Of a stretch of 63,796 nucleotides of DNA, positions 2,732 to 56,704 are shown piece after piece. Source of the DNA: Candidatus Binataceae bacterium. Its GTDB lineage: Bacteria; Desulfobacterota; Binatia; Binatales; Binataceae. Both the position numbers and the translations under genes were made by a program. The DNA lies in NCBI GenBank assembly GCA_050736615.1, contig JBOHWL010000111.1, positions 1-63,796 on the forward strand, given 5' to 3'. How positions within the stretch are numbered: position 1 is the stretch's first letter; every line of letters starts with the position of its first letter. The notes below the pieces were generated by a model. It did not search any database. It was given only the letters and a program-made list of their open reading frames with translations, and had not been told where the DNA came from.

Positions 2732-2937
2732 CTAGGGAAGCTCTGCACAAGCCCATTTGTCATTCTGAACGGAGTCTGCCATCAGCGGAGCCGAAGGCGA
2801 AGCGAGCGAACGAGTCTGCGAGGCGCGCACTAAGATCAGTGAAGAATCCCGGCAAAAAGCCCGTAAAAACCAGAAGATCCGGGATTCTTCGCTGCGCTCA
2901 GAATGACAGAATCACCCCTTGTGCAGAGCTTCCCTAG
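2732..2937. repeat. MITE-like nested palindromic element, copy 1 (206 bp)
   Basis: Perfect 20-bp terminal inverted repeats (CTAGGGAAGCTCTGCACAAG ... CTTGTGCAGAGCTTCCCTAG). A second inverted pair is GTCATTCTGAACG / CGCTCAGAATGAC. The inner hairpin is GAAGAATCCCGG-N26-CCGGGATTCTTC. It has no coding capacity beyond a spurious small ORF. Confidence 0.85.
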
Positions 2938-3167
2938 CGGAGCGGCGTTGCGCGGCGGAGCGAGCAGGCGAGTCCGCGAGCTGCGTTAAGCACGCTAGTG
3001 GAGCCGCGTTGCGCGGCGGAGCGAGCACATCAGGCGAAGCCAAAGGCGGCACGAGCGAATGAGCCCGCGAGTCGTGTTTAGGAGAACCAACCGCGAGCTG
3101 CGTTAAGCACGCTAGTGAGCCGCGTTGCGCGGCGGAGCGAGCAGGCGAGTCCGCGAGCTGCGTTAAG
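2934..3167. repeat. tandem array of three ~60-nt GC-rich units; the middle unit carries a ~57-nt insertion
   Basis: Units at 2934-2994, 2995-3112 and 3113-3167 each begin with CTAG. They share GCGTTGCGCGGCGGAGCGAGCAGGCGAGTCCGCGAGCTGCGTTAAG. The array abuts the right end of MITE copy 1 and ends 2 nt before the wzt ATG. Confidence 0.8.
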
Positions 3168-3169
3168 AA

Positions 3170-4498
3170 ATGGAACCGGTTATCAAAGTCGAAAACCTGG
3201 GCAAACGCTATCGTCTGGGCGAGCGCGAAAGTTATCAGACCTTGCGCGAGAGTCTCGTCAGATGGAGCAAGGCGCCGTTTCGATCGGTCGGCGCGCTCGT
3301 GCGCAACAGCCGTGTGCCGCGCCCGGAACACAGTCACGTATGGGCCTTGCGCGAGGTCAGCTTCGAGGTCAAGCAGGGCGAAGTGATGGGGCTCATCGGA
3401 CGCAACGGCGCCGGCAAATCGACCTTGTTGAAAATCCTCTCGCGCGTCACCGAGCCGACCACCGGACGCGCTGAACTGCATGGGCGGGTCGGCAGCCTGC
3501 TCGAAGTCGGCACCGGTTTCCATCAAGAATTGAGCGGCCGCGACAACATTTATCTGAGCGGCGCGATTCTCGGCATGCGCGCCGCCGAGATCACGCGCAA
3601 ATTCGATGAAATCGTCGCCTTCGCGGAGCTGGACCGCTTCGTCGATACGCCCGTCAAGCGCTATTCCAGCGGCATGTACGTGCGTCTGGCGTTCGCTGTC
3701 GCCGCTCATCTGGAGCCAGAAATTTTGTTGGTTGACGAGGTGCTGGCGGTGGGCGACGCCGTGTTCCAGAAAAAATGTCTGGGCAAAATGGGCGAGGTGG
3801 CACGCCACGGCCGCACCGTTTTATTCGTCAGCCACAATATGGCCTCGGTCGAGTCGTTGTGCGGCTCCTGCATTCTGATCAAGTCCGGCCGGGTCGAGGC
3901 GAGAGGCAAGCCCACCGATATCATCGCGCGCTATCTTGCCACCGAACTCGCGCCCGGCCCCGGCTGGTGCTCATTGCTTACGCATTCGGGCCGCACTCCC
4001 AGTTCGAGACCACTCATGCGGCGGGTCGAAGTGCGCTCGAGTGCGGACGCGCCGCCCGGAATGGTGCGGATGGGCGCGGCGATGGAGATTCAGGTGGAAT
4101 ACGAAGCGCCGTCGCCGTTGCGGCCGGTGCTAGGTGTCACCGTGCGCACAGTCCAGGGTGTCCCGGTCTTCTGCGTTAGCGACCGTCATCATTGGCAACT
4201 CGCCGGATGCAAACCGTCGGCTCATGCGACCGTCGTATGCGCGATCGAGCATGTCCCGCTGATGCCGGGCAATTATGTAATCGATTTGTGGCTGGGCGAC
4301 GCGGGTGTTGATTTGGACGTAATTCTTGATGCGATCTCGTTCGAGGTGCTGCCGGCGGATTTAACCGGCACGGGTCAATTGCCACCGCCGATTCTTGGTC
4401 CGGTCTTCGTGCCCGCGACCTTTGCGCTGCGAAGCGCCAATGCCGGACGGAGTGGAGATGGAATAGTCTCCACTGCGAGCGGCCCGGACGGCCGCTAA
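3170..4498 (+). CDS. wzt: O-antigen/polysaccharide export ABC transporter ATP-binding protein with a C-terminal Wzt_C-like glycan-binding extension
   Basis: Walker A GRNGAGKST, signature YSSGMYVRLAF and Walker B ILLVDEVLAVGD. The N-terminus MEPVIKVENLGKRY is typical of Wzt/TagH. About 170 extra C-terminal residues lie at roughly nt 3932-4430. Confidence 0.9.
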   Translation: MEPVIKVENLGKRYRLGERESYQTLRESLVRWSKAPFRSVGALVRNSRVPRPEHSHVWALREVSFEVKQGEVMGLIGRNGAGKSTLLKILSRVTEPTTGRAELHGRVGSLLEVGTGFHQELSGRDNIYLSGAILGMRAAEITRKFDEIVAFAELDRFVDTPVKRYSSGMYVRLAFAVAAHLEPEILLVDEVLAVGDAVFQKKCLGKMGEVARHGRTVLFVSHNMASVESLCGSCILIKSGRVEARGKPTDIIARYLATELAPGPGWCSLLTHSGRTPSSRPLMRRVEVRSSADAPPGMVRMGAAMEIQVEYEAPSPLRPVLGVTVRTVQGVPVFCVSDRHHWQLAGCKPSAHATVVCAIEHVPLMPGNYVIDLWLGDAGVDLDVILDAISFEVLPADLTGTGQLPPPILGPVFVPATFALRSANAGRSGDGIVSTASGPDGR

Positions 4499-4519
4499 AA
4501 GATCGTCGTGACGGAAGCG

Positions 4520-4804
4520 CTAAGGAACCTCTGCACAAGTCCCATTTGTCATTTTCGAGCGCATTAGCACAGCCGAGGGAAGCGAGCGGGCGAGTCTTTA
4601 TCCTTGGCCGAAGGCTTGCGGACTCGTCCGCCCCACGGAACTCCGTTTAGGGCTGCGAGTGCGCGAGTCGCGTTCAGGACAACGAGTCCGCGAGGTGCGT
4701 TTCAATAAATGAAGAATCCCCGCAAAAAGCTCAAAAATCAAAAATATCCGGGATTCATCGTTGCGCTCAGAATGACAGAATCATCCGTTGTGCGAAGCTT
4801 CCCC
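4520..4804. repeat. MITE-like nested palindromic element, copy 2 (285 bp, diverged, extra internal modules)
   Basis: Left end CTAAGGAACCTCTGCACAAG..GTCATTTTCGAGCGC. Right end GCGCTCAGAATGACAGAATC..GTGCGAAGCTTCCCC. The inner stem is GAAGAATCCCCG-N-CCGGGATTCATC. The centre holds several CGAGTCYGCGAG modules. Confidence 0.75.
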
Positions 4805-4881
4805 AAAATGATCGTTCAAATGGAAACGGTAAGAGACATGGAGAAAGCCGATATAAACACGTGTGTTGCCAGCGCGAATGA

Positions 4882-5166
4882 GCGTCCGGCGACCTATCTG
4901 GCAAGCCCTCCACGCCAGGCTTTAAAAGGCTAACCACGACTGCGGCCGAGGATGTCGAGCTTGCTTGGGCTTTGCGGCTGAGCGGCTGGAAACTTTGGGT
5001 GGACCCGCGGCTGCGGTTCCAGCATTTCACCTCCGCGTCGCGTTTGAACTGGGGCAATTTCCTCAAGTTGCAGCGCGAAAGGAGTGCCTGTCTGGTCAAT
5101 CTTGACTCATACAAATTCGCCTTGGTGCTGAATGCGAGCGATCGTGGTCGCCTGAGTGAAAAATGA
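4882..5166 (+). pseudogene. C-terminal remnant of a GT2-family glycosyltransferase
   Basis: In-frame translation gives ..TTTAAEDVELAWALRLSGWKLWVDPRLRFQHF.., the ED-x-EL..RL..GW....P motif of the GT2 catalytic-domain C-terminus. No N-terminal Rossmann-like half is present. An in-frame stop lies at 4879-4881 and a MITE lies upstream. Flanking frames up to ~5390 look decayed. Confidence 0.6.
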
Positions 5167-5393
5167 GCATACAACTTCGGCGTCAACCTATGGTCAATTC
5201 TAAAAAATATTGTGCTGCGGCGGCAAAAAGTATTTGGCTGCGAACTATCGCGGTTCGAGGGGGATGAAGATGTCTTTCGCATCGTTGATTCAGGATTGAT
5301 GGTCCAGCGTGCGCGCTGCTCCGCTCCGATGTCTCATAATTCCAAACGAAACTGTTCAGCTATTGGGCAACTTTCCGCACCCGTAAGTGGCAA

Positions 5394-6166
5394 ATGCTCG
5401 ACGAGAGTGCAGCCAAAGTTCTTCGACTGATCGAGGACGGCGATGTTGTCCTCGACATTGGCGGTTGGGCGCGGCCGTTCAACCGTGCCAACTTCGTCAT
5501 TGATGCCGAACCCTATGAGACCCGCGGTTACTTCAGTGACCCGAAGCTGGCGAGCAAGCGTGGATGGTTCGCACCGGCTCAAGGCGGGGTACGCGAATGG
5601 TTTGGTAAAGAAACCTGGATTCAGCGCGATCTTTGCGAAAGAACAGCCTTTCCCTTCAAGGACAAGGAGATCGACTTCGTCATATGCTCGCATACGCTTG
5701 AGGATATCCGCGACCCGCTATGGGTTTGTTCGGAAATCCTGCGGATTGGCAAGCGCGGCTATATCGAGGTTCCCTCCGGGTGGCCGAGTCGTGCCGTGGG
5801 ATTGAGCCGAATCTAGTTGGCTGGTCGCATCATCGATGGCTGGTGGACATCGCGGATGGCCATATATCATTTTTGATGAAATATCATACGATCCATAGCC
5901 ACTGGCGGTTTTCGTTTCCTTCGAGTTATTTGCGCGGACTTCCAGAGGAGCGCCGGGTCCAGTCGCTATACTGGGAAGGAAAATTCACGTATTCGGAATT
6001 GAATATTCACTCGGCCGGAGCGATAGCCGCCGCGTTGGAGAGGTTCGTAATGGAAAACCAGGGCCACCCTCGCTGGGTTCTCGCGGTGGATCGCAGGTTA
6101 CGTGCGATTCACGCGTTTACCAGCCGAATGGCGGGATTTATCCGCCGGCGCCTGGCCGTGGATTAG
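5394..6166 (+). pseudogene. class I SAM-dependent methyltransferase interrupted by a 1-nt frameshift near 5777
   Basis: Track ORFs 5394..5816 and 5720..6166 join as ..KRGYIEVPS / RVAESCRGIEPNLVGWSHHRWLVD.. if C5777 is read twice, at the TCC-CGG junction. The N-terminal half has a VLDIGG SAM-binding motif. Confidence 0.65.
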
Positions 6167-6171
6167 CTCGC

Positions 6172-6720
6172 ATGGAATTGGCATGCGCCAAGCTGAACCT
6201 CGGTTGCGGGCGGAGGTTGATCGAAGGGGCAACCAATCTCGATATGTGTCCCGACGTCAATCCGGACCTGGTCCACGATCTCAATCAGAGGCCGTGGCCC
6301 TTGCCCGACGGCGAATTCGAAGAAGTGCTGGCCTATGACGTGATCGAGCATTGCTGTGACCTGGTTGGCGTGATGGAGGAGGTGCATCGCGTATGCCGCG
6401 ACGCGGCGATTGTACGTATCACGGTGCCGCATTTCTCCTGTTCGAACACCTTCGCCGACCCCACTCATCGGCACGCGTTCACCTCGCGCAGTTTTGAATA
6501 TTTCACCGACGAGGCGGAATTTGATTTTTACACCAGGTGCCGCTTCAGACGCCGCGCCACCAACATCGTGTTCGCGCCAACTTTGCTGAACAAGCTCGTA
6601 TGGCGTATCGCGAACCGATGGCCGCGCGAGTACGAACGCCGCTGGGCCTGGGTGTTTCCCGCCTGGTTTATCTACTGCGAACTCGAAGTGGTGAAGACCG
6701 TTGAGGGGCGCGCGTCATGA
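6172..6720 (+). CDS. class I SAM-dependent methyltransferase
   Basis: KLNLGCG (motif I), AYDVIEH, and a short Methyltransf_11/23-like layout. Confidence 0.8.
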   Translation: MELACAKLNLGCGRRLIEGATNLDMCPDVNPDLVHDLNQRPWPLPDGEFEEVLAYDVIEHCCDLVGVMEEVHRVCRDAAIVRITVPHFSCSNTFADPTHRHAFTSRSFEYFTDEAEFDFYTRCRFRRRATNIVFAPTLLNKLVWRIANRWPREYERRWAWVFPAWFIYCELEVVKTVEGRAS

Positions 6721-7400
6721 AGCCCCGGCGAGTGATCGCCGGCGTTTTTAAAGCGGCGCTCGGCGAGGCGCGCTATGCGGAGCTGCGCCGCCGCTCGCTT
6801 GGCTGGCGCTCCAGCCGCACTGCTTTCGGTGATATCTACGAACACGGTGGTTGGAAATGTGCCGAAAGCGCCTCTGGCACGGGCTCGACGCTGACCGGCA
6901 CCGTGGCCTTGCGCCGCGCCTTGCCCGGACTTATGCGCCAGCTCAACGTACATTCGATCCTCGACGCCGGATGTGGCGACGTCAATTGGATCAGCACGGT
7001 GGATTTAGCTGGGGTGGCATATATCGGTATGGACGTGGTGCCGGCCTTAATCGAACGCAATCAAGCGGCTTATGGAGACGAGACTCACAGGTTTATTTGC
7101 GCGGATATTTCTTGCGATCCACTGCCAATCGCCGCCGCGGTCCTCTGCCGTCATTGTCTCATCCATTTGTCCAACCAACGGGTGCTCATGGCGTTGCGGA
7201 ATTTCAAGCGAAGCGGCTGCCGCTACTTGTTGACGACCACCTTTCCGCGACTCCAGGTCAACCGCGACATCTGGAACGGCAGTTTCAGGCCGCTAAATCT
7301 GCAAGCCAATCCGTTCGATCTACCCGAGCCGCTCCTGACGCTTGAGGATGCGGACGACTCCGCGGTACTGGCGGTCTGGCGGCTTGGTGAAATCCCTTGA
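6717..7400 (+). CDS. class I SAM-dependent methyltransferase
   Basis: ILDAGCGDVNW (motif I) and YIGMDVV (motif II). The start overlaps the upstream stop as ATGA (6717-6720). Confidence 0.75.
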   Translation: MKPRRVIAGVFKAALGEARYAELRRRSLGWRSSRTAFGDIYEHGGWKCAESASGTGSTLTGTVALRRALPGLMRQLNVHSILDAGCGDVNWISTVDLAGVAYIGMDVVPALIERNQAAYGDETHRFICADISCDPLPIAAAVLCRHCLIHLSNQRVLMALRNFKRSGCRYLLTTTFPRLQVNRDIWNGSFRPLNLQANPFDLPEPLLTLEDADDSAVLAVWRLGEIP

Positions 7401-7422
7401 GGCCACGCAGGCTCGCGTCGCC

Positions 7423-8493
7423 ATGCGCGTCTTGCATATTGTGCCGGCCTTGTTCGGCTCCGACGGCATCATCGGCGGCGCCGAGCGCTACGTGTTCGAG
7501 CTTGCGCGCCATATGGCCAACGAGGTTTCGACGCGTTTGCTGACGTTTGGATCGCGCGATCGCACGGAGACCGCCGGCGCGCTTGAAATCCGCGTGAGCG
7601 GCAATCCGTGGTACGTGCGCGGCCAGCGTGGCAATCCGGTTTCACGCGCCATACTGAGTGAAATCCGGCGTGCCGACGTGGTTCATTGCCATCAGCAACA
7701 CGTGCTCGCCAGCAGTATCGCGGCGGCGGTATGCCGGCTTTCAGGCCGGCGGGTCTTTGTCACGGATTTGGGCGGCGGGGGTTGGGATGTGTCGGCGTAT
7801 GTTTCGACTGATCGTTGGTATCATGGCCATTTGCACCTGAGTAACTACAGCCGCAAGCTATATCAACATACCGGGCGGCCGCGCGCCTACGTCATTCTGG
7901 GCGGAGTTGATATAGACAAGTTCTCCCCCGATTACTCAGTCGCGCGCCAATCAACCGCGCTCTTCGTCGGCCGACTGCTGCCCCATAAGGGTGTGAATTA
8001 TCTAATCGAGGCGATGCCGCCGAATTGCAAGCTGGACATTATCGGCCCTTGCGGCGACCCGCGCTATCTGCGCGACTTGCACGAACTTGCCGATGGCCGG
8101 CGCGTGAAGTTCCGCCATGATTGTGACGATACGGCGTTGGTCGCGGCCTATCGCCGCGCCTGCTGTGTCGTGCTACCCAGCGTGTACAAGACATTGTACG
8201 GCGACGAAACGCGAGTACCTGAATTGCTGGGGCAAACCTTGCTCGAGGCAATGGCCTGCGGCACACCCGTCATATGCACCGAGGTCGCCAGTATGCCGGA
8301 GATTGTCGAGGACGGTGTGAACGGCTTTATCGTGCCACCCAACGATCCGACGGCTTTGCGCGAGAAAATCGCGTGGCTCCTGAACAATCCGCATCACGCG
8401 GCCGCGATGGGTAAGGCGGGGCGCCAACGTGTGCTGGATAGATTCACCTGGCCGGCGGTGGTGCGCCGCTGCCTCGAGGCTTATGCGTCGTGA
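7423..8493 (+). CDS. glycosyltransferase, GT4 family
   Basis: Track ORF 7342..8493. Start placed at MRVLHIVPALFGSDGIIGGAERYV. The C-terminus reads ..LLGQTLLEAMACGTPVICTEVASMPEIVEDGVNGFIVPP. Confidence 0.85.
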   Translation: MRVLHIVPALFGSDGIIGGAERYVFELARHMANEVSTRLLTFGSRDRTETAGALEIRVSGNPWYVRGQRGNPVSRAILSEIRRADVVHCHQQHVLASSIAAAVCRLSGRRVFVTDLGGGGWDVSAYVSTDRWYHGHLHLSNYSRKLYQHTGRPRAYVILGGVDIDKFSPDYSVARQSTALFVGRLLPHKGVNYLIEAMPPNCKLDIIGPCGDPRYLRDLHELADGRRVKFRHDCDDTALVAAYRRACCVVLPSVYKTLYGDETRVPELLGQTLLEAMACGTPVICTEVASMPEIVEDGVNGFIVPPNDPTALREKIAWLLNNPHHAAAMGKAGRQRVLDRFTWPAVVRRCLEAYAS

Positions 8494-8521
8494 CCGAAGC
8501 GCCAGCAATCATCGAATCCAA

Positions 8522-9661
8522 GTGGCACAATGGCATCTGATTACCGGTGAATACCCGCCCGATAGCGGCGGCGTTGGCGATTATTCGCGTCAGATCGCGG
8601 TCGCGCTGGCTGCCGCCGGCGACCAGGTTCATGTGTGGGTGCCCGCTTCCAGTCAAGCGAATTCGAGCGAGTCCGGCGTCGAATTGCATCGGAGGCCCGG
8701 GCACCTGGGATTAAACCTGAGTCGCCTGTCACGCACGCTGGCCGGTTCCGACAGCGCACGCCTGCTGGTGCAATACGCTCCGCATGCGTTCGGGTTTAGG
8801 GCGATGAATCTGCCGTTTTGCCTTTGGCTGTATGTCCATCGCCACCGTGTTCCGATCGACGTGATGTTCCATGAAGTGGCGTTTCCGATTCGTCGCGGGC
8901 AACCTGTCCGGCACAACCTGCTTGGCGCTGTGCAGCGGGCGATGGCGATGCTGGCGGCGCGAGCGGCTGATCGTATCTTCGTGGCGTCCGCGGCATGGAG
9001 TGAACGGTTGAAACCGCTGCTGGCGCGTCCGCGCGATGTCATCTGGCTACCCGTGCCGAGCAACATTCCAGTGACGGAAGATCGCTGCGCGGTCGCGGCC
9101 GTCCGCCGCCGCTATGCGGATGAACACGGTCTCATCCTGGGCCACTTCGGCACCTATCGAGCCGATATCGCGCGGAGCCTCATGGAGGTGATTCCCGCCG
9201 TGATGCGTGAGCATCAAAATCTGGCGCTGCTGTTGAGCGGATACAAGAGCTTCGCTTTTCGCGCGCGCTTATTGAATACGCATCCCGATCTTAACGCGCG
9301 CGTGCATGCGACGGGACGGCTGGAAGCGACGCGCTTGTCGTGCGTGTTGAGCGCATGCGACGTGATGTTGCAGCCGTATCCGGATGGTGTGGATACGCGC
9401 CGCGGCAGCATGATGGCGGTGCTGGCCCATGGCCGTGCGACGGTGGCGAATTTGGGGAGCCTGAGCGAACCATTGTGGCGGGACGAAGGCGTGATCGCGG
9501 TTGAGGACGACGCCGACGCGATGGCTGCGGCGGTGAAGCGCCTGCTGGCCGATGAATCCTTGCGGCGGCGGATGGAAGTGTCGGCGCGCCATCTGTATCA
9601 ACGTTTTGACCTCAGCCATACTATCGCGGCAGTTCGTGCGGTTACGTGCGCATCGCAATAG
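8522..9661 (+). CDS. glycosyltransferase, GT4 family
   Basis: Track ORF 8429..9661. A GTG at 8522 gives (M)AQWHLITGEYPPDSGGVGDY, a typical GT4 N-terminus. ATG 8483 is an alternative start. Confidence 0.75.
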   Translation: MAQWHLITGEYPPDSGGVGDYSRQIAVALAAAGDQVHVWVPASSQANSSESGVELHRRPGHLGLNLSRLSRTLAGSDSARLLVQYAPHAFGFRAMNLPFCLWLYVHRHRVPIDVMFHEVAFPIRRGQPVRHNLLGAVQRAMAMLAARAADRIFVASAAWSERLKPLLARPRDVIWLPVPSNIPVTEDRCAVAAVRRRYADEHGLILGHFGTYRADIARSLMEVIPAVMREHQNLALLLSGYKSFAFRARLLNTHPDLNARVHATGRLEATRLSCVLSACDVMLQPYPDGVDTRRGSMMAVLAHGRATVANLGSLSEPLWRDEGVIAVEDDADAMAAAVKRLLADESLRRRMEVSARHLYQRFDLSHTIAAVRAVTCASQ

Positions 9662-10932
9662 TCAATCGCTATCGCAGTATAATCGGCGGCGTCGAAAGTT
9701 ATCTCGATTGCGTAATGCTGCAGTTGGATTACGCGGGCCATCAAATCGCATTTTTATATGAACAGGACGGCTCCGAGCGGCATGCCCGGATTGCAATTCC
9801 TCCCAGCGCGACCGTCTGGCGCCTGGCGGACGCGAATGTCAGCGCGATAGCCGCGCTGAAAGACTGGCGTCCAGACCTTATCTATGTGCATGGGGTCGCC
9901 GATCTGGAGACTGAAGCCGAGTTGATTGAACTCGCGCCCGCCGTATTTTTCGCGCACGCGTATACGGGCACCTGTGTTGCTGGTGAGAAAGCCTTCAAGT
10001 TTCCGCGCGCACGGCCATGTGAACGGCGCTTCGGCTGGCAATGTTTGACGCATTACTATCCGCGCCGATGCGGCGGATTGAATCCGCGCACAATGATGGC
10101 GGAATACGCGCGTCAGTCGGCGCGGCTCGCTTTGCTCCGGCGCTATGACGCGATCGTGACCGCATCGGCATTTATGCGCGCCGAGTATGCGCGCCATGGT
10201 TTCGAGTGCGTATACCAGGTCGGGCTGCCGCTGCCGCGAGGCGGGCAGGACATTCCGCCGCGAGTGGTGGAAGATACGGCTGCTCGCGACAAGGACCCCC
10301 GTTATTGGCGCCTGTTATTTGCCGGCCGCATGATGCCACTCAAAGGTGGCGCGATGCTGCTCGAAGCACTGCCTCAAGCCGCCGCCGTTTTGGCTCGTCC
10401 GCTCAAGCTTGCGTTCGCGGGTGACGGTCCGGCGCGCGCGGCATGGGAAGCCAAGGCGCGGGGCCTCGAGGCGCGCCATTCTTCGCTTAAAATTAACTTC
10501 ACGGGCTGGGTCGCGCATGATCAATTGGCCGGACTCTACCAGGACGCGGATTTGCTGGTGATGCCGAGTCTGTGGCCGGAGCCGTTTGGCCTGAGCGGAG
10601 CGGAAGCCGGGCTTTACGGCCTTCCCACCGTCGCTTACGCGGTGGGCGGGATTCCGGAGTGGCTGCACGACGGCGTCAACGGTCATCTGGCGCCGGCTGA
10701 TCCGCCCACCACCGCCGGGCTGGCGGACGCGATTATCGCCTGTCTGCGCGATCGCGATCATTATCAGCGGCTTTGCGAGGGCGCGCGAGTAAGCAGTCGC
10801 AGGATGACTATTTCCAACCACCTGGGGCGCTTGCTGGAAGTCTTCTCCGCAGTTCGACAGGGCGTTGGAAGAAATCGGATTGGCAAATTACGACCGAATG
10901 ATTATGCCGTTCAACCCCGCGGGGTGGATTAA
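9646..10932 (+). CDS. glycosyltransferase, GT4 family (with a 4-Cys insertion)
   Basis: GTG start giving (M)RIAIVNRYRSIIGGVESY. C-terminal signature PSLWPEPFGLSGAEAGLYGLPTVAYAVGGIPEWLHDGVNG. It overlaps the previous gene by 16 nt. Confidence 0.8.
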   Translation: MRIAIVNRYRSIIGGVESYLDCVMLQLDYAGHQIAFLYEQDGSERHARIAIPPSATVWRLADANVSAIAALKDWRPDLIYVHGVADLETEAELIELAPAVFFAHAYTGTCVAGEKAFKFPRARPCERRFGWQCLTHYYPRRCGGLNPRTMMAEYARQSARLALLRRYDAIVTASAFMRAEYARHGFECVYQVGLPLPRGGQDIPPRVVEDTAARDKDPRYWRLLFAGRMMPLKGGAMLLEALPQAAAVLARPLKLAFAGDGPARAAWEAKARGLEARHSSLKINFTGWVAHDQLAGLYQDADLLVMPSLWPEPFGLSGAEAGLYGLPTVAYAVGGIPEWLHDGVNGHLAPADPPTTAGLADAIIACLRDRDHYQRLCEGARVSSRRMTISNHLGRLLEVFSAVRQGVGRNRIGKLRPNDYAVQPRGVD

Positions 10933-11800: not shown

Positions 11801-11882
11801 CGGCGCCGCAGGCACCGCGCACAACCGCGCTTATCCGGATTCGTCCGATGACCGATTCGCTCCGCTTATGTGAACAACGCTG

Positions 11883-13031: not shown

Positions 13032-13032
13032 G

Positions 13033-15323: not shown

Positions 15324-15333
15324 GCCGAACTCT

Positions 15334-19933: not shown

Positions 19934-20084
19934 CTGGGGAACCTCTGCACAAACCCATGTGTCATTCCTGAACGGAGTCTGCGAAGTGAAGAATCCCGGT
20001 AAAAAGCCCGCAAAATCGAAAAGATCCGGGATTCTTCGCTGCGCTCAGAATGACAGAATTACTCCTTGTGCAGACCTTCCCTGG
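19934..20084. repeat. MITE-like nested palindromic element, copy 3 (151 bp, minimal form)
   Basis: CTGGGGAACCTCTGCACAAA..GTCATTCCTGAACGGAGTCTGC, GAAGAATCCCGG-N26-CCGGGATTCTTC, then GCGCTCAGAATGACAGAAT..CTTGTGCAGACCTTCCCTGG. It lacks the central GC-rich module. Confidence 0.85.
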
Positions 20085-28356: not shown

Positions 28357-28389
28357 GCGTAAAGACCTGCGCGCCAGCCGCTCCGCCAT

Positions 28390-28570
28390 TCATAAGAGTA
28401 CAGTCATTCCGGGCGGAGTCCGCCGGAGTCGAGAAATCGGCGTTTACTCTGAGCACAGCCGAAGGGCGCAGCGATTATTCTTATCAGCAAACAAGCAAAG
28501 ATTCTTTGCTTCACGCAAACCCCGCGGCGCGTTCAATGACAAGCGGGATCACGAATCCATAGAGCGCTAA
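28390..28570. repeat. degenerate relic of the MITE-like element (copy 6?)
   Basis: GTCATTCCGGGCGGAGTC, AAGATTCTTTGCTTCACGC and GCGTTCAATGACAAGCGGGATCAC occur in the same order as GTCATTCTGAACGGAGTC / GGGATTCTTCGCTGCGC / GCGCTCAGAATGACAGAATCAC. The termini are poorly conserved. Confidence 0.35.
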
Positions 28571-31138: not shown

Positions 31139-31190
31139 CTAGGCGGAGGGCAGCGGAGCCGAGCAGGCGAGTCTGCGAGCTGCGTTATTC
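31139..31190. repeat. solitary copy of the GC-rich module associated with the MITE family
   Basis: CTAGGCGGAGGGCAGCGGAGCCGAGCAGGCGAGTCTGCGAGCTGCGTTATTC closely matches the tandem units at 2934-3167. It starts with CTAG and sits in a 74-nt intergenic gap. Confidence 0.6.
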
Positions 31191-31200
31191 AGAGTCGATT

Positions 31201-44531: not shown

Positions 44532-44547
44532 CCGCCCGCTATAAGCA

Positions 44548-45324: not shown

Positions 45325-45340
45325 AGAGGCGGTGGAGATA

Positions 45341-46900: not shown

Positions 46901-46919
46901 GCGCGCCGCGCCGCATCCC

Positions 46920-48386: not shown

Positions 48387-48453
48387 TGATGCCGATGATT
48401 GACCGATCGACTCGTGCCACGTCATCGCCGCGGCCGTCCTCATCGGTGTAATC

Positions 48454-48846: not shown

Positions 48847-48884
48847 CGCATCAGCAAAGTATTTATTGCGCCCACGTGCAACAC

Positions 48885-49088
48885 CAGGGAAGCTCCGCAC
48901 AAGCGCCAGTTGTTATTCCGAACGGAGTCTGCCGTTAGCGTATCCGCAGGCGGAGCGAACAAACGAGTCTGCGAGGTGCGTTCAAAAATAAGTGAAGAAT
49001 CCCGGAAAAATCCTTGAAAAGGCAAAAATTCCGGGATTACTCGCCGCGCTCGGAATGACAGCGTGACACTTGTGCGGAGATTTCCTAG
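48885..49088. repeat. MITE-like nested palindromic element, copy 4 (204 bp), followed by a GC-rich module at 49089-49122
   Basis: CAGGGAAGCTCCGCACAAG..TTATTCCGAACGGAGTCTGC, a central GAGCGAACAAACGAGTCTGCGAGGTGCGTT, GAAGAATCCCGG-N-CCGGGATTACTC, and CGCTCGGAATGACAG..CTTGTGCGGAGATTTCCTAG. It is followed by CCGAGCAGGCGAGCCTGCGAGCCGCGTTCAAA. Confidence 0.8.
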
Positions 49089-49215
49089 CCGAGCAGGCGA
49101 GCCTGCGAGCCGCGTTCAAAAATGACAAAATCAGGCTCGGTGCGGAACTTGCCTAAAGCTCCCTTGCGGCTCCGCCCGCGCGATTCTATTGTTCACTCAA
49201 ACTCGCGGAGGGTCT

Positions 49216-49449: not shown

Positions 49450-49483
49450 CCGCCGCCCCCAATGGGCGTGAGTTTTCCCTCGA

Positions 49484-49987
49484 TTGCATTCGAACGTGGT
49501 TAGCCGGCGCAAACGTTCACGCGATGAATTATTTGTAGAGCAGGCGCGGGAGTTCACCGAGCTTCGTGGTTTTCTCAACCATCATGGGATGAACGAAGAG
49601 AGGGACGCGGCGGGATGTTGGCTGATCGCGTGGTGGGATGGCGAACCGGTTGGTGTCGTGGCGATTGAAACCGTGATCGACGCTGCCGCGATGCGCGCGT
49701 TGACGGTCGCCGAATCAAAGCGCCGGCATGGCGTGGGAGCCGCGCTGGTCGCGGCGGCACGCGATGCGGCGCATGCGCGCGGTGCCCGCCGCCTTTATGC
49801 ATTAGCGGCGCCTACGGCGGCGGATTACCTCAGGCGCTTTGGCTTCACCGAGGTCGCCCGTGCGGAGTTGGCTGAAGCGCTGGCCGATACGAAAGTCGGC
49901 GCGCGCTGGCAAAAATCTCCGGCGAACTTCGCCGCGCATACGGCGCTTTGCCTTGATCTCGCGCATTACCGGGAAATTATTCGTTGA
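49484..49987 (+). CDS. GNAT-family N-acetyltransferase
   Basis: VGVVAIE...LTVAESKRRHGVGAALVAAARDAAHARGARRLYAL is the acetyl-CoA binding motif A (R-x-x-G-x-G/A). The start is uncertain (TTG 49484 or ATG 49589). Confidence 0.7.
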   Translation: MHSNVVSRRKRSRDELFVEQAREFTELRGFLNHHGMNEERDAAGCWLIAWWDGEPVGVVAIETVIDAAAMRALTVAESKRRHGVGAALVAAARDAAHARGARRLYALAAPTAADYLRRFGFTEVARAELAEALADTKVGARWQKSPANFAAHTALCLDLAHYREIIR

Positions 49988-50030
49988 AGCGGAGCGGACG
50001 TCCCGCGATCGGGATAACCCGGAGACGGTC

Positions 50031-50291
50031 TTAGCCGGCACCCATGATCCGCATCAGGCTAAGGGTCAACTGCCACGATGATACGATGAAGCCGGCCACG
50101 CCGATCATTCCGCTGATCCAAAACGCTGCCGGATAACGGCGCGAGTGCACCACGCGTTCCAGCGGCAGGTTGGTGTAGCGCGCCGTCCGCTGGCGCATGC
50201 GCGCATGGAATATGAGCGAACTGACGATCGCATAGCCGAAACATACGCAACCCAGCACAGACATCAGCAAGCGCCGTTCGGGTTCAGACAC
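50031..50291 (-). CDS. hypothetical small membrane protein (two predicted TM helices)
   Basis: LLMSVLGCVCFGYAIVSSLIF and AAFWISGMIGVAGFIVSSW. It lies 18 nt downstream of the amidinotransferase-like gene on the same strand. No family was recognised. Confidence 0.35.
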   Translation of the reverse strand: MSEPERRLLMSVLGCVCFGYAIVSSLIFHARMRQRTARYTNLPLERVVHSRRYPAAFWISGMIGVAGFIVSSWQLTLSLMRIMGAG

Positions 50292-50309
50292 CGCCGAACT
50301 CCGCTTGAG

Positions 50310-51320
50310 CTACCCGGCTGGGCTGCCAAACAGGCGTTGGTAGGAACGTTCGGCCCGGAACTGGACCGCGCCCACGGACGAGGGCTGCTCGGCATTGGGG
50401 CCCAGGTCGAGAATCATGCATTTGATCGAGCCACCACCTTTGGCGAGAAATTCGCTGACATTGATCAAGACCGGTTCGACGCCATGACCTCGCACCTGGC
50501 GGAGTAGGTCATCGCTAACTCCTTCCGGCATGAACAGGTAAAGCTTGCCGTCAAAATCGGTCTGAAAGGAATTTGCCGCATAAAGCGCGGCGTCATCCGC
50601 CGACAGCGGAAGTAGATTACGGCCGAACTTCTCCCGCAGCATATCACGGGACGATGGTGTCAGGCCGTCGAGGTAGGCGAGCACAAACTCGCGATCGAGA
50701 CCGAAGGAGCACAGCACCGTATCCCCGTGATAATGCGCCTCGAGGCATAGTTCGAGCGCCAGAATTGGACGCTCCGCGACCACCCGTTGCAACTCCTCGG
50801 TGGTGCCGCGTTCCGAGCGGAAGCCATAAACCCGTTTCCAGGGCGGCAATCCGAGGCGTGGCATAAAACGCTGCCGCTCCAGCCGGCCATAGGTGAATAG
50901 CATGAAGCGGCCGGCGGGAAAGAAATCCGCCTCGCCCTCAAAGCGCGAGGCCACCTCGTGGGTTTCCAACCCCATCGCGCGAATAAACGGGCGATAGATA
51001 TCGCGCTCGACCGCGCGCGTGGGCAACAGGTTGGCGAGGTAAAAGATTTTGCGAGCCGGGGCGTCGCTCGATGCGAACTTCAACGGGAACAAAAAGCCCG
51101 CGTTGGCCGGATACACCAGACCGGTCAGCTCAGGGTGGGGCTCGATCACGCAAATCTCGACTCCATGAGCGGTCAGCGCGCGGGCCAGATGATGCCACTG
51201 CTCGCGCGCGCGCTTCGCGTCCACACTCTTGCGCAAGCCCAAGGCGTTGCGCGTGTGCGGATTGGCGCCGCCGCGCACCGAAAAATAGGCTGGATCGCCC
51301 ATCAGGATGGTTCGTGGCAT
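50310..51320 (-). CDS. amidinotransferase / DDAH-like guanidino-group-modifying enzyme family protein
   Basis: A C-terminal GGGSIKCM (Cys nucleophile context) and an N-terminal ILMGDPAYF.. of the pentein fold family. Confidence 0.65.
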   Translation of the reverse strand: MPRTILMGDPAYFSVRGGANPHTRNALGLRKSVDAKRAREQWHHLARALTAHGVEICVIEPHPELTGLVYPANAGFLFPLKFASSDAPARKIFYLANLLPTRAVERDIYRPFIRAMGLETHEVASRFEGEADFFPAGRFMLFTYGRLERQRFMPRLGLPPWKRVYGFRSERGTTEELQRVVAERPILALELCLEAHYHGDTVLCSFGLDREFVLAYLDGLTPSSRDMLREKFGRNLLPLSADDAALYAANSFQTDFDGKLYLFMPEGVSDDLLRQVRGHGVEPVLINVSEFLAKGGGSIKCMILDLGPNAEQPSSVGAVQFRAERSYQRLFGSPAG

Positions 51321-51544
51321 AAGACGGTCATGAAAGCCTTGCGTACCGGGTTAAACCTCAATGCCGGCGGGTTGTTTCATGGGAGGAATAGGACGCCCGC
51401 GCGAAAAAAGCCGCCGCCGCGACGGGTGCGCCATCGGCTCCCATCGCAGCGGCTCATCATCGAAGCAATTGGGCAACCCTTCGCCAATCAATTGCGGGCG
51501 AGGGGTCCAGCTCGACCGTCGCCGAAATTAGCTGTCCCGGCGGC

Positions 51545-51844
51545 TTACTTGCGGTCGAGTTCGGTCAACATCTCCAGCTGCGGGCGGCCGTCCAGCAATT
51601 CGGCGATACGCTGACCCATTTCCTTCATGTGTTCGGTTTTGCGGTGATTATCGAAAGCGGCTTGGTCCTGGTAAACCTCGTACCAGACGAATTGGGTGGG
51701 ATCCTTCTCGGCACGATGCAGCACATAGGCCTGACATCCAGGTTCGTTGGCGCGGACCTTCTTGATCATGTCGCGGAAGGCTTCCTCCAGCTTCTGCTCG
51801 CTTCCCTGCTTGGCTTTGATTTTCGCAATCAGCGTTACGGACAT
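51545..51844 (-). CDS. antibiotic biosynthesis monooxygenase (ABM) family protein
   Basis: A 99-aa ferredoxin-like protein: ..EPGCQAYVLHRAEKDPTQFVWYEVYQDQAAFDNHRKTEHMK. Confidence 0.8.
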   Translation of the reverse strand: MSVTLIAKIKAKQGSEQKLEEAFRDMIKKVRANEPGCQAYVLHRAEKDPTQFVWYEVYQDQAAFDNHRKTEHMKEMGQRIAELLDGRPQLEMLTELDRK

Positions 51845-52072
51845 GGAAATCTCCTTTGACCGCTGTGGCAGCCCTTCGCCGTCCAGCGCGACGGGACAGA
51901 GACAACGGTTGCAGCCCTATCAGTCGCACGCTAGCAGATTTTCAACCAAAAGCGACCGCCCGCCCGCGAGGCGTATCCAACCGCCGTCAGCTTTAGACAC
52001 AGGTCGATCCGAGCAAAGCAAACGCCGGCATGTTAGCCTGTGGACGGCAACAAGCCGCCCGGAGCGTGCTCT

Positions 52073-53215
52073 ATGATCGGTTTCGATTTGAGCGACGAAC
52101 AGCGCGAGCTAAAAGCGCTGGCGCGGAAGTTTTCCGACAATGAAATCATTCCACGCGCACGCGAATACGACGAATGCGAGCGCTTTCCGCGTGACATCTG
52201 CGAACGCGCTTTCGCCGCCGGCCTGATGAATTTTGGCGTTCCGCGCGAACTGGGCGGCCCCGGTCTGGGTATTCTCGATACGTGTATTATCCAGGAAGAG
52301 CTCAATTACGGATGCTCAGGCATCTCTAATTCGATCAGTGCCAATGATCTTGGCGCGTTGCCGCTCTTGATCGCCGGCAACGACGATCAGAAACGCGCAT
52401 ATCTTGGCGCGCTGACCGAAAAATTGACGTTCTGCGCCTTTGCCATCACCGAACCGGGAGCCGGCTCCGACGTCGCCGCGATGAGCACCAGTTATCGGCG
52501 TGAAGGTGACAGCTTCATCCTGAACGGCACTAAGCATTTCATCTCGAACGGCTCGATGGCGGATTGGCTCGTAACTTTCGCGACCAGGGATAAGCGGCTT
52601 AAGCACAAGGGCATCTCGTGCTTCGTGTTCCCCTCCGAACTGGCCGGCATCACCCGCAACCGCATGCATGGCAAACTTGGACAACGCGCCGCCGATACCG
52701 GCGAGATCGTCTATGATGAAGTCCACGTGCCGTCCAGCGCGCTGGTCGGAGAAGAAGGCGAGGGTTTCAAGTACGCGATGGCCACTTTCGATCGCAGCCG
52801 TCCCGAAATCGGCGCGATCGCGTCGGGTGTGGCGCAACGCGCCTTGGACGAATGCGTCAAGTACTCACGCCAGCGCAGCGCGTTCGGCCAGCCCATCGCG
52901 AATTTCCAGGCGATTCAGTTCATGCTGGCCGACATGGCCGTGAGTATCGAGGCGATGCGGTTGCTGACGTACAAGGCGGCGTGGATGGTGGATCAGGGCG
53001 AAACTCCCAACGTAATCGCCAGCTATGCGAAGGCCTTCGGCGCCGACGCGTGCATGAAGATCACCACCGACGCGGTGCAAATCTTCGGCGGCTACGGCTA
53101 TATGAAGGAGTATCCGGTCGAGAAACTTATGCGCGACGCCAAGCTGCTGCAGATTTATGAAGGCACTTCGCAAATCCAGCGCGTGGTGATTGCGCGTGAT
53201 TTGCTCAAGGGCTAA
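52073..53215 (+). CDS. acyl-CoA dehydrogenase (short/branched-chain type)
   Basis: Start placed at MIGFDLSDEQRELKALARKF. AITEPGAGSDVAAM, and C-terminal QIFGGYGYMKEYPVEKLMRDAKLLQIYEGTSQIQR. Confidence 0.9.
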   Translation: MIGFDLSDEQRELKALARKFSDNEIIPRAREYDECERFPRDICERAFAAGLMNFGVPRELGGPGLGILDTCIIQEELNYGCSGISNSISANDLGALPLLIAGNDDQKRAYLGALTEKLTFCAFAITEPGAGSDVAAMSTSYRREGDSFILNGTKHFISNGSMADWLVTFATRDKRLKHKGISCFVFPSELAGITRNRMHGKLGQRAADTGEIVYDEVHVPSSALVGEEGEGFKYAMATFDRSRPEIGAIASGVAQRALDECVKYSRQRSAFGQPIANFQAIQFMLADMAVSIEAMRLLTYKAAWMVDQGETPNVIASYAKAFGADACMKITTDAVQIFGGYGYMKEYPVEKLMRDAKLLQIYEGTSQIQRVVIARDLLKG

Positions 53216-54042
53216 TCACCGGCCGCGGGTCTGTAAATATTCCGCGCAATCGCGGTCACCCATGAGCGCGGCACAAAACGCGTCATCTGCGCCATCGTAA
53301 AATTCAGTGCGCCGTTGACGTAAACGCCGCGCCGGCTGGCCGCCGCCGCGATCGCCTGCTCAACCACTTTGGGCGCTTCCATATAGGTGAATGACGGCAT
53401 GAAGGCCTTTTCATTATGCGCCACGCCTTGGAATTCGGTGCGCACCGGACCCGGACAGACGGCGGTGACGGTCACGCCGGTGCCGCTCAGTTCAGCCGCC
53501 AGCCCTTGTGAGAAGCTCAGCACGAAGGCCTTGGTTGCGGCGTAGGTCGTCATGTACGGAACCGGCTGGAAGGCCGCGGTTGAAGCAACGTTGAGAATGG
53601 TGCCGCCGTGCCGCCGCACCATCGCGGGCAGGAACAACCGCGTCAGTGCAACCAGCGCCTTGACGTTAAGATCGATCTCTTCCAACTCGCGCTCGAGCGG
53701 CAGACGCTCGAAGTGGCCGGACGTGCCAAAGCCGGCGTTGTTGACCAGATAATCGATGGTCACCTGCTCGCCGTCGAGGCGGCGCTGGATTTCCTCCGGC
53801 GCTTCGCGGCGGCTCAAATCACATGCGATGACTCTGGTCTCCGGCGCGCCCATTTCCTTGGCGCGCGCGGCGATGGACCGCATGCGTTCCTCGCGCCGGG
53901 CAATCAGTACCAGGTTATATTTGCGACGCCCGAGCGAGTACGCGAACTGCTCGCCCAAGCCGCTTGAAGCTCCGGTAATCAGCGCGGTGCTCAATGCCGC
54001 CTCCGTTGGAAGGATACTGGGCCGGCCCGCACTGGCCGTCAA
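53212..54042 (-). CDS. SDR-family oxidoreductase
   Basis: ALITGASSGLG, NNAG, YAATKAF (YxxxK). Its stop overlaps the convergent ACAD stop (CTAA at 53212-53215). Confidence 0.85.
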   Translation of the reverse strand: MTASAGRPSILPTEAALSTALITGASSGLGEQFAYSLGRRKYNLVLIARREERMRSIAARAKEMGAPETRVIACDLSRREAPEEIQRRLDGEQVTIDYLVNNAGFGTSGHFERLPLERELEEIDLNVKALVALTRLFLPAMVRRHGGTILNVASTAAFQPVPYMTTYAATKAFVLSFSQGLAAELSGTGVTVTAVCPGPVRTEFQGVAHNEKAFMPSFTYMEAPKVVEQAIAAAASRRGVYVNGALNFTMAQMTRFVPRSWVTAIARNIYRPAAGD

Positions 54043-54100
54043 CCGCCAAAATCGTTGGAATGTTCAACCCGGAAGCGTTTTGCCAGTGACTGAGAGCGCG

Positions 54101-55042
54101 TCATGCCTGAAGCAGACCGAGTTCATCGCGAAAATGCTCGATTGTCCGCGCCAGCCCCGTACGCAGCGGCGTTTCCGGCGACCATTGGAGTTTGTCTCCC
54201 GCCAATGTGATGTCCGGACGCCGCCGCACCGGATCGTCCGGCCGGGCCGGATGGTAAGCAAGTTTTGACTGGCTGGCGGTCAGCTCGATCGCCAGCGAGG
54301 CGAGTTCGAGAATCGTGAACTCGTCCGGATTGCCGATATTCACTGGCCCGATGAAGCCCTCGACATCCATCATGCGCACGAGCGCCTCAATGATGTCATC
54401 GACGTAGGCGAATGAACGCGTCTGGGAGCCGTCGCCATAAATCGGGATTGGGTCGCCCTTCAGCGCCGCGATGCAGAAATTGGAGACGACGCGTCCGTCG
54501 TTGGGCGCCATCCGGGGACCGTAGGTATTGAAGATGCGCACGATGCGGATATCGACGTTGTTTTGGCGATGATAATCCATCATCAGCGACTCCGCCACGC
54601 GCTTGCCCTCGTCATAGCAGGAGCGCACGCCGATGGGATTGACATGACCCCAGTAGCTTTCGGTCTGTGGATGCTGCTCGGGGTCGCCATAGACCTCGCT
54701 GGTCGAAGTCAACAACATCCGTGCGCGCACGCGCTTGGCCAGGCCGAGCATGTTGATGGTGCCCATCACGCTGGTTTTGATCGTCTTGACGGGATTGTAC
54801 TGGTAATGCACCGGTGAAGCGGGGCAGGCGAGGTGGAAGATGCGATCAACCTCGAGCAGGATTGGCTCGACAATATCATGGCGAACCATTTCAAAATTTG
54901 AATCACCGAGCAGATGAGCGACGTTGGTGCGTTTGCCACTGAAAAAATTGTCCAGGCAAATGACTTCATGGCCGTCGCGCAGCAACCGTTCGCATAGATG
55001 AGAGCCGAGAAAACCCGCACCGCCGGTTACCAGAGTTCGCAC
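54101..55042 (-). CDS. UDP-glucuronate decarboxylase (UDP-xylose synthase-like extended SDR)
   Basis: [61 protein letters not shown]. Very close to the UXS consensus. Confidence 0.9.
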
Positions 55043-55175
55043 CCGTTCTCCTCGATCGCCAGGATGTAAAGGAGACGGCGCCGCCGGCCGCCACCTGCCC
55101 CCGCTGCCGTCGCACGGTTTCCAGTCGTACGCAACCAGTTTGCAACAGCGCTGAAAATGGCTGCCGCGCGCTCGC

Positions 55176-56357
55176 CTATCGTTTATTTTCCGCTACGAGA
55201 TGGCGCACCGTGTCAATCACGTAAGCACAATCCTCGCCGCCCATCGTCGGGAAAATCGGCAACGACAGGCAGCGGCTGAAAACGTCTTCGGCGATCGGGA
55301 AATCGCCGTTACAATAACCGTAGCGCGCCTGGTAAAAATGCATCGTATGCAACGGGATGCAATGCACCGAAGTGCCGACCCCGCGCTCGCGCAGCAGTTC
55401 GACAAAACGGTCGCGCCCGATGCGCAGTTGTTCGAGGCGCAGGCGCGCCACGTACAGATGCCAGGCATGCTCGATGCCAGGTTCGCTCGTCGGAATTTCG
55501 AGCGCGGATTCTCCAGCGAACGCTTCATTGTATGCGTGCGCGATCGCCTGGCGCATCCGCCGCAGTTCATCCGCGCGCCTGAGCTGCGCCAGGCCAATCG
55601 CCGCATGCACATCCGACAAGTTATACTTGAAGCCGGTATCGTGAATTTCGTAGTACCACGAGCCGCCGCGATCGTAACGCTTCCAGGCGTCGTGATCCAT
55701 CCCATGCAGGCTCGCGACCGCGATTTTCGCGGCCAGCCGATCGTCTTCGGTGGTGATCATGCCACCTTCGGCGCTGGTGATGTTCTTGGTGGCGTAAAAG
55801 CTGAAGCAGGTCACGTCGCCGATCGAACCGATGCGCACCAGGCCGCGATCCTTGATGCGCAACGCCGCCCCCACCGCGTGTGCGGCGTCCTCGACTATTT
55901 TCAAATCGTGCCGGCGTGCGATTGCGAGCAGGCGCGTCATGTCGCACGGATGGCCGGCGAAATGTACCGGCAGCAGCGCGCGGACATGGCGATGGGTGCC
56001 GCTTTCCAGCACTTGTTCGAGCCGCGAGCAGTCGATGTTGAGCGTCGCGGGATCGATATCGACGAATACCGGCCGCGCGCCCAAGTAGCCGATTACCTCG
56101 GCGGTCGCGGTGAAGGTGTAGGGCGTTGTGATCACTTCGTCGCCGGGGCCGACGCCGAGCGCAAACAGCGCGAGATGCAGCGCGCCGGTGCAATGCGCCA
56201 CGGCCAGCGCGTTGCGCGCGCCGGCATAGATGGCGAATTCCTTTTCGAAACGCTTGGTCTTTGGCCCCGTCGTTAGCCAACCCGAGCGCAAGGTATCGAG
56301 CACCTCACGCTCTTCGTCAACCCCAATCGCAGGCCGATGAAACGGAATTTGCCGCAT
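55176..56357 (-). CDS. DegT/DnrJ/EryC1/StrS-family PLP-dependent sugar aminotransferase (ArnB/WecE-like)
   Basis: [18 protein letters not shown], and [17 protein letters not shown] (PLP lysine). Confidence 0.9.
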
Positions 56358-56553
56358 CGGTTATAACGTCCAGAATAGTCGGTCCTGAAGCGTGGGCGCC
56401 GACCGCATCATTCGCGCGCTCAGTTGATCCACAAATTCGCGCTCAAGCCGTTCCGCAGTGTATAGAGAGACACGGTCGGACGAAAGATGCGCGCGCAATA
56501 TCATTACGCGTCAACGCCGGCGAGCGCCGGGAGAATTCTGGATCGAAAGCTTC

Positions 56554-56704
56554 CTTAGAGAACCTCGGCACAACCTCATTTGTCATTACTGAACGGAGCC
56601 CGCCATTAGCGTAGCCGCGGGCGGAGCAAGCATTCCAGGCGGAGCGGCTCCGCTGGCAGCGCTTCAGAATGACAGACTCGCCCCTTGTGCGGGTGCTTCC
56701 CTAG
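56554..56704. repeat. MITE-like element, copy 5 (151 bp, variant lacking the GAAGAATCCCGG hairpin)
   Basis: CTTAGAGAACCTCGGCACAAC..TGTCATTACTGAACGGAGCCCGC ... GCGCTTCAGAATGACAGACTCGCCCCTTGTGCGGGTGCTTCCCTAG. The terminal CTAG overlaps the stop codon of the next gene. Confidence 0.75.

Follow-up and report, generated by a model that had tools for sequence, protein, structure and literature searches.

Five intergenic palindromic repeats in a Candidatus Binataceae contig are probably IS5-group MITEs and carry a widespread 27-nt stem-loop unit

What are the five similar, palindrome-rich sequences that lie scattered between the genes of a contig from the uncultured lineage Candidatus Binataceae, and what placed them there? 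The stretch of DNA that we analysed, called the window here, is contig JBOHWL010000111.1 of assembly GCA_050736615.1, read on the forward strand over its 63,796 nt (60% GC); homologues of its helicase and AcpS likewise assign it to a Candidatus Binataceae MAG (metagenome-assembled genome). A preliminary description of its sequence had taken the repeats for a dense family of nested palindromes resembling miniature inverted-repeat transposable elements (MITEs), with a 20-bp terminal inverted repeat (TIR) and membership in no named family. We found five homologous elements of 142–279 bp without their flanks, every one of them intergenic. Comparison of their ends, flanks and relatives suggests that they are very probably non-autonomous class II elements, MITEs of the IS5 group within the IS5 family of insertion sequences (ISs), mobilised in trans. 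At their core lies a 27-nt stem-loop unit that also occurs well beyond this family.

The homology of the copies was established with an nhmmer profile built from all five, which returned exactly five full-length matches in the window (E 1e-34 to 1e-67). Their coordinates, which include the flanking 4-mers, agree within 1–2 nt with those first proposed. The copies and their parts are as follows.

2732..2937, plus strand: MITE copy 1, a 198-bp element with 4-bp flanks
2732-2735 and 2934-2937: CTAG target-site duplication (TSD) of copy 1
2736-2751 and 2918-2933: 16-bp TIRs of copy 1, matching at 16/16 positions
2759-2907: core doublet of copy 1
~2793-2835: GC-rich module of copy 1, in the left-arm loop
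2841-2852 / 2879-2890: inner stem of copy 1, with a 26-nt loop
2884-2910: right arm (27-nt unit) of copy 1
4520..4806, plus strand: MITE copy 2, a 279-bp element flanked by CTAA / CCAA
4524-4539 (1 mismatch) and 4787-4802 (3 mismatches): TIRs of copy 2
19934..20084, plus strand: MITE copy 3, a 143-bp element without a GC module, flanked by CTGG / CTGG
19938-19953 and 20065-20080: TIRs of copy 3
20031-20057: right arm (27-nt unit) of copy 3
48884..49088, plus strand: MITE copy 4, a 197-bp element flanked by CCAG / CTAG
56555..56704, plus strand: MITE copy 5, a 142-bp element without the 12-bp inner stem, flanked by TTAG / CTAG

A MAFFT alignment joined the copies as one homologous family, with pairwise identities of 66–89% and large indels limited to the left half. 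As the preliminary description had it, length varies through GC-rich insertions in that half, the largest being in copy 2. The 20-mer CTAGGGAAGCTCTGCACAAG occurs seven times in the window at up to three mismatches (0.01 expected), always at the ends of copies 1–4, and matches 20/20 at both ends of copy 1. Further inside, the copies contain the inverted pair GTCATTCTGA(A/G)CG / CGCTCAGAATGAC; its 13-mer gave 11 matches against 3.3 expected, the clean ones falling within the copies. Also borne out was a 12-bp hairpin, GAAGAATCCCGG...CCGGGATTCTTC, present in copies 1–4 and missing in copy 5, perfect in copies 1 and 3 and with two mismatches in copies 2 and 4. The suggestion that a whole element could fold as a hairpin agrees with the predicted folds, which reached −51.6 kcal/mol as DNA for copy 1 (z = −7.8 against dinucleotide shuffles) and, for copy 3, z = −7.75 as DNA and −7.9 as RNA against the same kind of control. 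All five copies are oriented on the plus strand though the neighbouring genes lie on both strands; such agreement has a chance of about 1 in 16 and is therefore not significant.

The terminal 20-mer, perfect in copy 1 as had been reported, does not stand as a TIR over its whole length. The true TIR is 16 bp, GGAAGCTCTGCACAAG, and the outer four nucleotides are a TSD at YTAR, usually CTAG. Outside copy 1, the 16-bp TIR carries 1–4 mismatches per end. The duplication reads CTAG/CTAG in copy 1 and CTGG/CTGG in copy 3, with one mismatch between the two sides in copies 2, 4 and 5. Since copy 3 has CTGG on both sides, a direct repeat where an inverted one would read CTGG/CCAG, these outer nucleotides lie outside the TIR. 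TTAG stands on both sides of a homologous element from a Deltaproteobacteria MAG (locus L016), and elements from metagenomes have direct flanks as well, CTAA/CTAA in L073, L121 and L111 and TTAG/TTAG in the L101 group. In total, six independent cases with non-palindromic flanks are direct, and none fits an inverted model in which TTAG on one side would face CTAA on the other. Duplication of a YTAR target is what IS5 produces (PMC5009759).

An autonomous IS with the same TIRs, which the preliminary description had proposed looking for, was found in metagenomes. A scan with the TIR query TAGGGAAGCTCTGCACAAG returned at least 120 loci, and among the matches listed the spacing of paired TIRs was bimodal, with about 31 elements of 89–509 bp and about 28 of 1156–1224 bp. 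The long elements, again among the matches listed, share this TIR, stand between CTAG flanks and encode a DDE transposase of the IS5 family. One of them, L088:9384-10552, is 1169 bp long with perfect 16-bp TIRs, CTAG on both sides and a single open reading frame (ORF) of 321 aa; about 27 others resemble it. The product of this ORF matches Pfam DDE_Tnp_1 and DUF772, scores 344.7 bits with the NCBIfam model of IS5 family transposases, NF033581 (cut-off 140), and is 48% identical to Escherichia coli InsH1 (E = 2e-106). Homologues of the transposase, at 36–100% identity, are present in about 40 of the 120 TIR loci listed, and public data hold at least 7,963 (E≤1e-60), the majority of them from contigs about 1.2 kb long. 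Among characterised elements, E. coli IS5 (1195 bp; TIRs GGAAGGTGCGAA(C/T)AAG) agrees with the window TIR at 12/16 positions and ISPa16, whose TIR GGAAGGTCTGAAAAAG lies beside CTAG, at 13/16. The repeat family, which had been described as unrecognised, is thus assignable to the IS5 group through its TIR, TSD and partner. This assignment does not refute the MITE reading.

The roughly 31 short TIR-bounded elements among the matches listed have unrelated, mostly palindromic interiors. In soil-metagenome loci we observed the 16-bp IS5-type TIR round unrelated foldback MITE families (L116, L125, L061, L105, L051, L052, L073, L094, L063 and L159), including a 182-bp GC-rich near-perfect palindrome and a family of about 130 bp with GGGCTTTAGCCCC hairpins. 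At L107, a 266-bp MITE (147-412) stands back to back with a full-length IS5-group element (417-1594), with one CTAG in common, an arrangement that is a tandem or nested insertion.

Sites in related genomes provide a further line of evidence. In L178, a contig from a related Candidatus Binataceae whose helicase is 88% identical to that in the window, YkuD closes with GGCTAAG, unbroken at the very point where CTAG-[copy 5]-CTAA stands in the window; a different, degenerate copy lies there in the opposite orientation, 45 nt further downstream of the YkuD end. L179 (helicase 77% identical) has a 29-nt YkuD-DegT spacer and no element. At the site of copy 1, the wzm-wzt spacer of L182 (Wzt 80% identical) is 102 nt long without a MITE, against 443 nt in the window, where it consists of copy 1 and GC-rich modules; the L182 spacer holds a solo 27-nt unit. 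Occupancy of the orthologous copy-5 and copy-1 sites therefore differs between relatives. Together with the shortness of the copies, their TIRs and TSDs and an IS5 partner with an identical TIR, these site differences uphold the earlier description of the family as MITE-like.

Placement in the window follows a pattern. As described before, the copies are intergenic, each lying between genes with Pfam support. Copy 1 begins 5 nt past the wzm stop codon, within the wzm-wzt operon spacer; copy 2 lies 21 nt past the wzt stop codon, copy 3 lies 8 nt past that of a glyoxalase gene, and copy 4 is 38 nt upstream of the acpS start codon (48846; confirmed by the called 130-aa AcpS). The CTAG of copy 5 at 56701-56704 itself supplies the stop codon of YkuD on the minus strand. 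CTAG is about 11-fold depleted in the window (21 observed against 229 expected from base composition), and four of the 21 flank MITE copies. With such depletion, usable targets would cluster at stop codons and in spacers, so that insertion at YTAR may have put the copies 0–21 nt from stops or in short spacers. Counting those beside GC-rich modules as well, one third of the CTAGs in the window flank either kind of sequence.

We infer the following mechanism. An IS5-type DDE transposase encoded elsewhere would bind both TIRs, excise or copy the element and insert it through a 4-bp staggered cut at YTAR. The IS5 TIRs would have captured a pre-existing palindromic repeat, leaving an interior that does not derive from an IS, and the differences in length would reflect expansion of GC-rich sequence in the left unit's loop. 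Several observations weigh against this account. No transposase was found in the window by tblastn with the IS5 transposase; none of the at least 7,963 homologues is labelled Binataceae, and the partner IS was seen only in metagenome contigs of unknown host. The MITE and the ISs have only the 16-bp TIR in common, with no shared subterminal sequence. Three of the five copies have imperfect TSDs, and with identities of 66–89% between copies this suggests that most insertions are old. The genomes with empty sites are also only 77–88% (helicase protein) or 80% (Wzt) identical to the window. As for the origin of the MITE, we considered an internal deletion of the IS and rejected it: none of 29 IS copies matches beyond the TIR, and with only the TIR in common the MITE is not a simple deletion derivative.

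What, then, is the interior? The inner inverted pair of the preliminary description is present, and we now read its palindromes as a pair of arms that together make up a single inverted doublet of a stem-loop unit of about 27 nt. The left arm reads GTC-ATTCT-GAGCGCAGCGA-AGAAT-CCCGG and is followed by a loop and then by its reverse complement, the right arm; the consensus of the unit is (G)ATYC-TTCGCTNCGCTC-AGRAT-GAC(A). Each arm is a small stem-loop whose stem covaries between the variants ATTCT/AGAAT, ATCCT/AGGAT, ATTCC/GGAAT and ATCCC/GGGAT. Taken over all loci, 82/116 arms are complementary, against 48.7 ± 3.5 with shuffled partners.

The unit is confined to the five copies within the window and is found far more widely outside it. 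A genome scan with the right arm detected the hairpin in MAGs of many phyla, with labels that include Clostridia, Terriglobia and Caldilineaceae, L016 being the only locus of that scan that also has the IS5 TIR. A scan of IMG/VR with TTCGCTNCGCTCAGRATGAC gave at least 120 loci, against a back-of-envelope chance expectation of about 1. Over the 134 unique IMG/VR instances listed, conservation stops sharply at aGATyC...GACA, and the unconstrained Y covaries with R (T-A 74, C-G 53, few exceptions; Fisher p = 7e-33), a count over instances that may reflect a few old subfamilies and not many independent events. A left-arm partner lies within 130 nt in only 28 of these 134, so that the unit is mostly solo, and an IS5-type TIR lies downstream of none of 148 pattern matches in the listed IMG/VR loci. 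Besides L185-L304 from IMG/VR, the unit occurs at L002, L007, L026 and L027. Two doublets without TIRs, L185 and L205, share their Joint Genome Institute (JGI) sample with the Binataceae relative L179, and in the left arm they nearly match the window MITE. In cultured collections, the unit is found only in plasmids of Calothrix sp. PCC 7716 and in no GenBank phage, which makes the "viral" label of the IMG/VR matches uncertain.

The unit also gives rise to the common junk peptides VILSAAKDL, SFAALRMT and EILRCAQDD, and peptides translated from the core belong to no Pfam or PHROG family. The unit itself has no Rfam match, and we found no description of it in the literature; a full-text search with the inner stem, the TIR and unit variants returned primers and unrelated sequences only. 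The 27-nt unit thus appears to be undescribed. One possibility is a micro-element that spreads horizontally on its own; another is a hairpin recognised by some enzyme of the HUH or another type. Either would have been captured here by IS5 ends, with a GC-rich loop module able to settle in frame in a helicase gene; we regard this as a tentative idea that is rather unlikely to hold as it stands.

A gut Clostridia MAG, HGM12831 (loci L010, L024-L027, L029, L031 and L037), contains at least nine copies of the hairpin doublet. Behind each doublet there stands another palindromic repeat of different sequence (GGCGGGCGATTCGTGAATCGCCCCTACGG).

The GC-rich modules are about 40 nt long, with the core CGAGCAGGCGAGTCYGCGAGSTGCGTT, and occupy the loop of the left unit in copies 1, 2 and 4. 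They also occur in the window outside the MITEs:

2938..3169, plus strand: tandem array of GC-rich modules with the core CGAGCAGGCGAGTCYGCGAGSTGCGTT, which takes up what remains of the wzm-wzt spacer and has CTAG at its unit boundaries (2934, 2995 and 3112)
31139..31191, plus strand: solo GC-rich module, with CTAG directly before it
59001..59054, minus strand: GC-rich module in frame within the PcrA/UvrD helicase ORF (57839-60073), adding about 17 aa in a variable loop

Several solo modules begin just past a CTAG, and part of the array at 2938-3169 is a tandem duplication of about 117 nt. The helicase is about 17 residues longer at the site of its module than PcrA 1pjr and most Binataceae homologues. 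The same loop holds about 36 additional residues in P0002, its closest relative, and the module is detectable in the helicase of L178 (L178:10008-10041).

The architecture of the core raises the question whether these are repetitive extragenic palindromic (REP) sequences or their doublets (REPINs), spread by a REP-associated tyrosine transposase (RAYT, of the Y1/HUH type) and not by an IS5 DDE enzyme. Two inverted stem-loop units round a spacer are what defines a REPIN (PMC3337134), a unit with a covarying 5-bp stem and a conserved loop resembles the substrate of an HUH enzyme, and TIR-less units and doublets occur in many genomes. Against this, the unit in the window is found solely within TIR-bearing copies, and RAYT transposition predicts neither 16-bp TIRs nor 4-bp direct duplications nor an IS5 partner. 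The unit has no GTAG-type 5' motif, and its near identity across phyla fits poorly with vertically inherited REPIN-RAYT pairs. A tblastn search with E. coli RayT gave no match at E≤1 in the window and about 1.1 Mb of fetched loci, tblastn being insensitive to distant homologues. We therefore consider a RAYT origin improbable for the elements as a whole; for the core unit alone it is less far-fetched, though still doubtful. A different kind of argument would make the copies structured RNAs or regulatory DNA hairpins (terminators, mRNA stabilisers or processing sites) kept by selection, with their likeness to transposons secondary. Their strong folds (z about −7.8), the covarying stem and the position of four of the five copies 0–21 nt downstream of stops, with copy 1 inside an operon spacer, would suit such a role. 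Good folding is expected of any TIR-bounded palindrome, however, and the placement near stops is accounted for by the YTAR target. Over the whole window Rfam gave no match at gathering score; the more permissive E≤10, applied to 2650-4850 with copies 1 and 2, brought up two irrelevant matches that both lie outside the copies. Nor did the stretch scanned round these two copies show a promoter or intrinsic-terminator signal above shuffled controls. As the copies are absent from orthologous sites in relatives, a conserved local function is not needed. We hold selection for such a function to be slightly less probable even than RAYT transposition of whole elements, and note that the copies may have a secondary effect on transcripts.

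The flanks bear on a third possibility, that the family is an IS630/Tc1-mariner-type MITE, like RUP, which duplicates TA; the flank would then read C-TA-G and the TIR would start GGGAAG. CTAG does contain TA, as do most flanks, but copy 3 has none in its CTGG/CTGG. With TTAG/TTAG flanks, G separates TIR from TA on the left and T does so on the right, two bases that do not form an inverted pair, and the partner transposase belongs to the IS5 and not to the IS630 family. The CTGG/CTGG and TTAG/TTAG flanks together exclude a TA duplication of the IS630 type, and we give this reading next to no weight. Equally little can be said for resemblance through chance or low complexity, or for copies that form part of real, conserved coding sequences. 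Small ORFs do cross the copies and one has been called as a gene; the preliminary description had warned that such spurious ORFs are easily mis-annotated, and we can point to one case, the 74-aa ORF at 4709-4933. This ORF starts in the hairpin of copy 2, is called on this contig and forms a nameless singleton cluster at 90% identity. The profile matches reach E 1e-34 to 1e-67, shuffled controls of the repeat motifs are far weaker, the core peptides have no Pfam or PHROG family, and the copies stand between Pfam-supported genes. Mobilisation of a non-autonomous family by an IS5-type transposase thus remains much the best explanation of what we observed.

Two further features of the window may be older remains of the family:

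28378..28560, plus strand: possible degenerate relic, without clear TIRs and with marginal support
49089..49160, plus strand: GC module followed by a degenerate MITE right end (AATGACAAAATCAGGCTCGGTGCGGAACTTGCC), adjoining copy 4 (weak profile matches, E 0.06-0.3)

The first corresponds to a relic that had been placed at 28390-28570. In local alignment it runs colinear with copy 4 (z = 3.4, a score equalled by 1 of 300 shuffles). Alignment to the other four copies was not significant, nhmmer gave no match near 28.4 kb even at E≤100 with --max, and blastn gave short words only, so that the earlier claim has marginal support. The feature beside copy 4 is probably a left-truncated older MITE copy; a left part to match its right end was not found.

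The neighbourhood of copy 2 differs from that in relatives in several respects. Wzt is divergent at its C-terminus, where the last ~20 aa depart from those of the 80% identical relative. Relatives have a glycosyltransferase after wzt that is missing here, and about 600 bp past copy 2 hold no credible gene, only the called 74-aa ORF and an overlapping ORF of 171 aa without a Pfam match. Positions 4440-5390 may be a rearrangement scar beside a MITE.

These results offer an explanation for five intergenic repeats of this genome, correct at least one spurious gene call (the 74-aa ORF) and locate mobile DNA in an O-antigen ABC-transporter operon and at the ends of genes. More broadly, one 16-bp IS5-type end is common to transposases that at the extremes are only ~36–50% identical and to many unrelated foldback MITE families of soil metagenomes, and the uncultured Binataceae belong to that pool. 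The MITE family is of a type already known, ordinary bacterial mobile DNA, and is in itself of modest interest. The part most worth pursuing is the widespread 27-nt unit, which, if it is a distinct element, would be the source of a class of junk peptides that is very common in metagenome protein sets, and would deserve a name and a model.

How do the window elements compare with known systems? Closest are IS5 and ISPa16, whose TIRs likewise begin with GGAAG and end with AAG beside a 4-bp YTAR/CTAG duplication. The partner element resembles IS5 in length (about 1.17 kb against 1195 bp) and in its single DDE transposase, 48% identical to InsH1. Unlike IS5, the elements in the window are 142–279 bp long and have no transposase gene, and their interior is unrelated to any IS5 sequence. 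In this they are like the IS5-family MITEs of Porphyromonas gingivalis (BrickBuilt, MITEPgRS/MITE464) and the Neisseria ATR element linked to ISNme1 (PMC4596501), which are also non-autonomous, have only the TIR in common with IS5-family ISs, retain no transposase remnant and have interiors of short repeated modules. Those elements differ in their 12-nt TIRs (GAGACC...), in TSDs that are variable or unclear, in tandem minisatellite repeats in place of a hairpin doublet and in the phylum of their hosts. With REP/REPIN elements, which are mobilised by RAYT (PMC3337134, PMC3116915), the core shares two inverted palindromic units and a spacer that can form a long hairpin; in contrast to REPINs, the window copies have DDE-type TIRs and a 4-bp TSD, lack the GTAG motif and carry a unit that is not lineage-specific, and we do not claim REPIN membership for them.

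Parallels exist further afield. Tourist MITEs of eukaryotes have just a TIR and a short TA-containing TSD in common with their autonomous element, PIF/Harbinger, whose transposase is related to that of IS5; they differ in their eukaryotic hosts, in a 3-bp TTA/TAA TSD and in the need for a second, Myb-like protein. The Rickettsia palindromic elements are short repeat modules tolerated in frame within conserved proteins, as is the GC-rich module in PcrA/UvrD. Unlike them, that module is not palindromic, measures about 40–50 nt and lies in an already variable loop, and a single in-frame site was seen, in the window helicase and its orthologue P0002.

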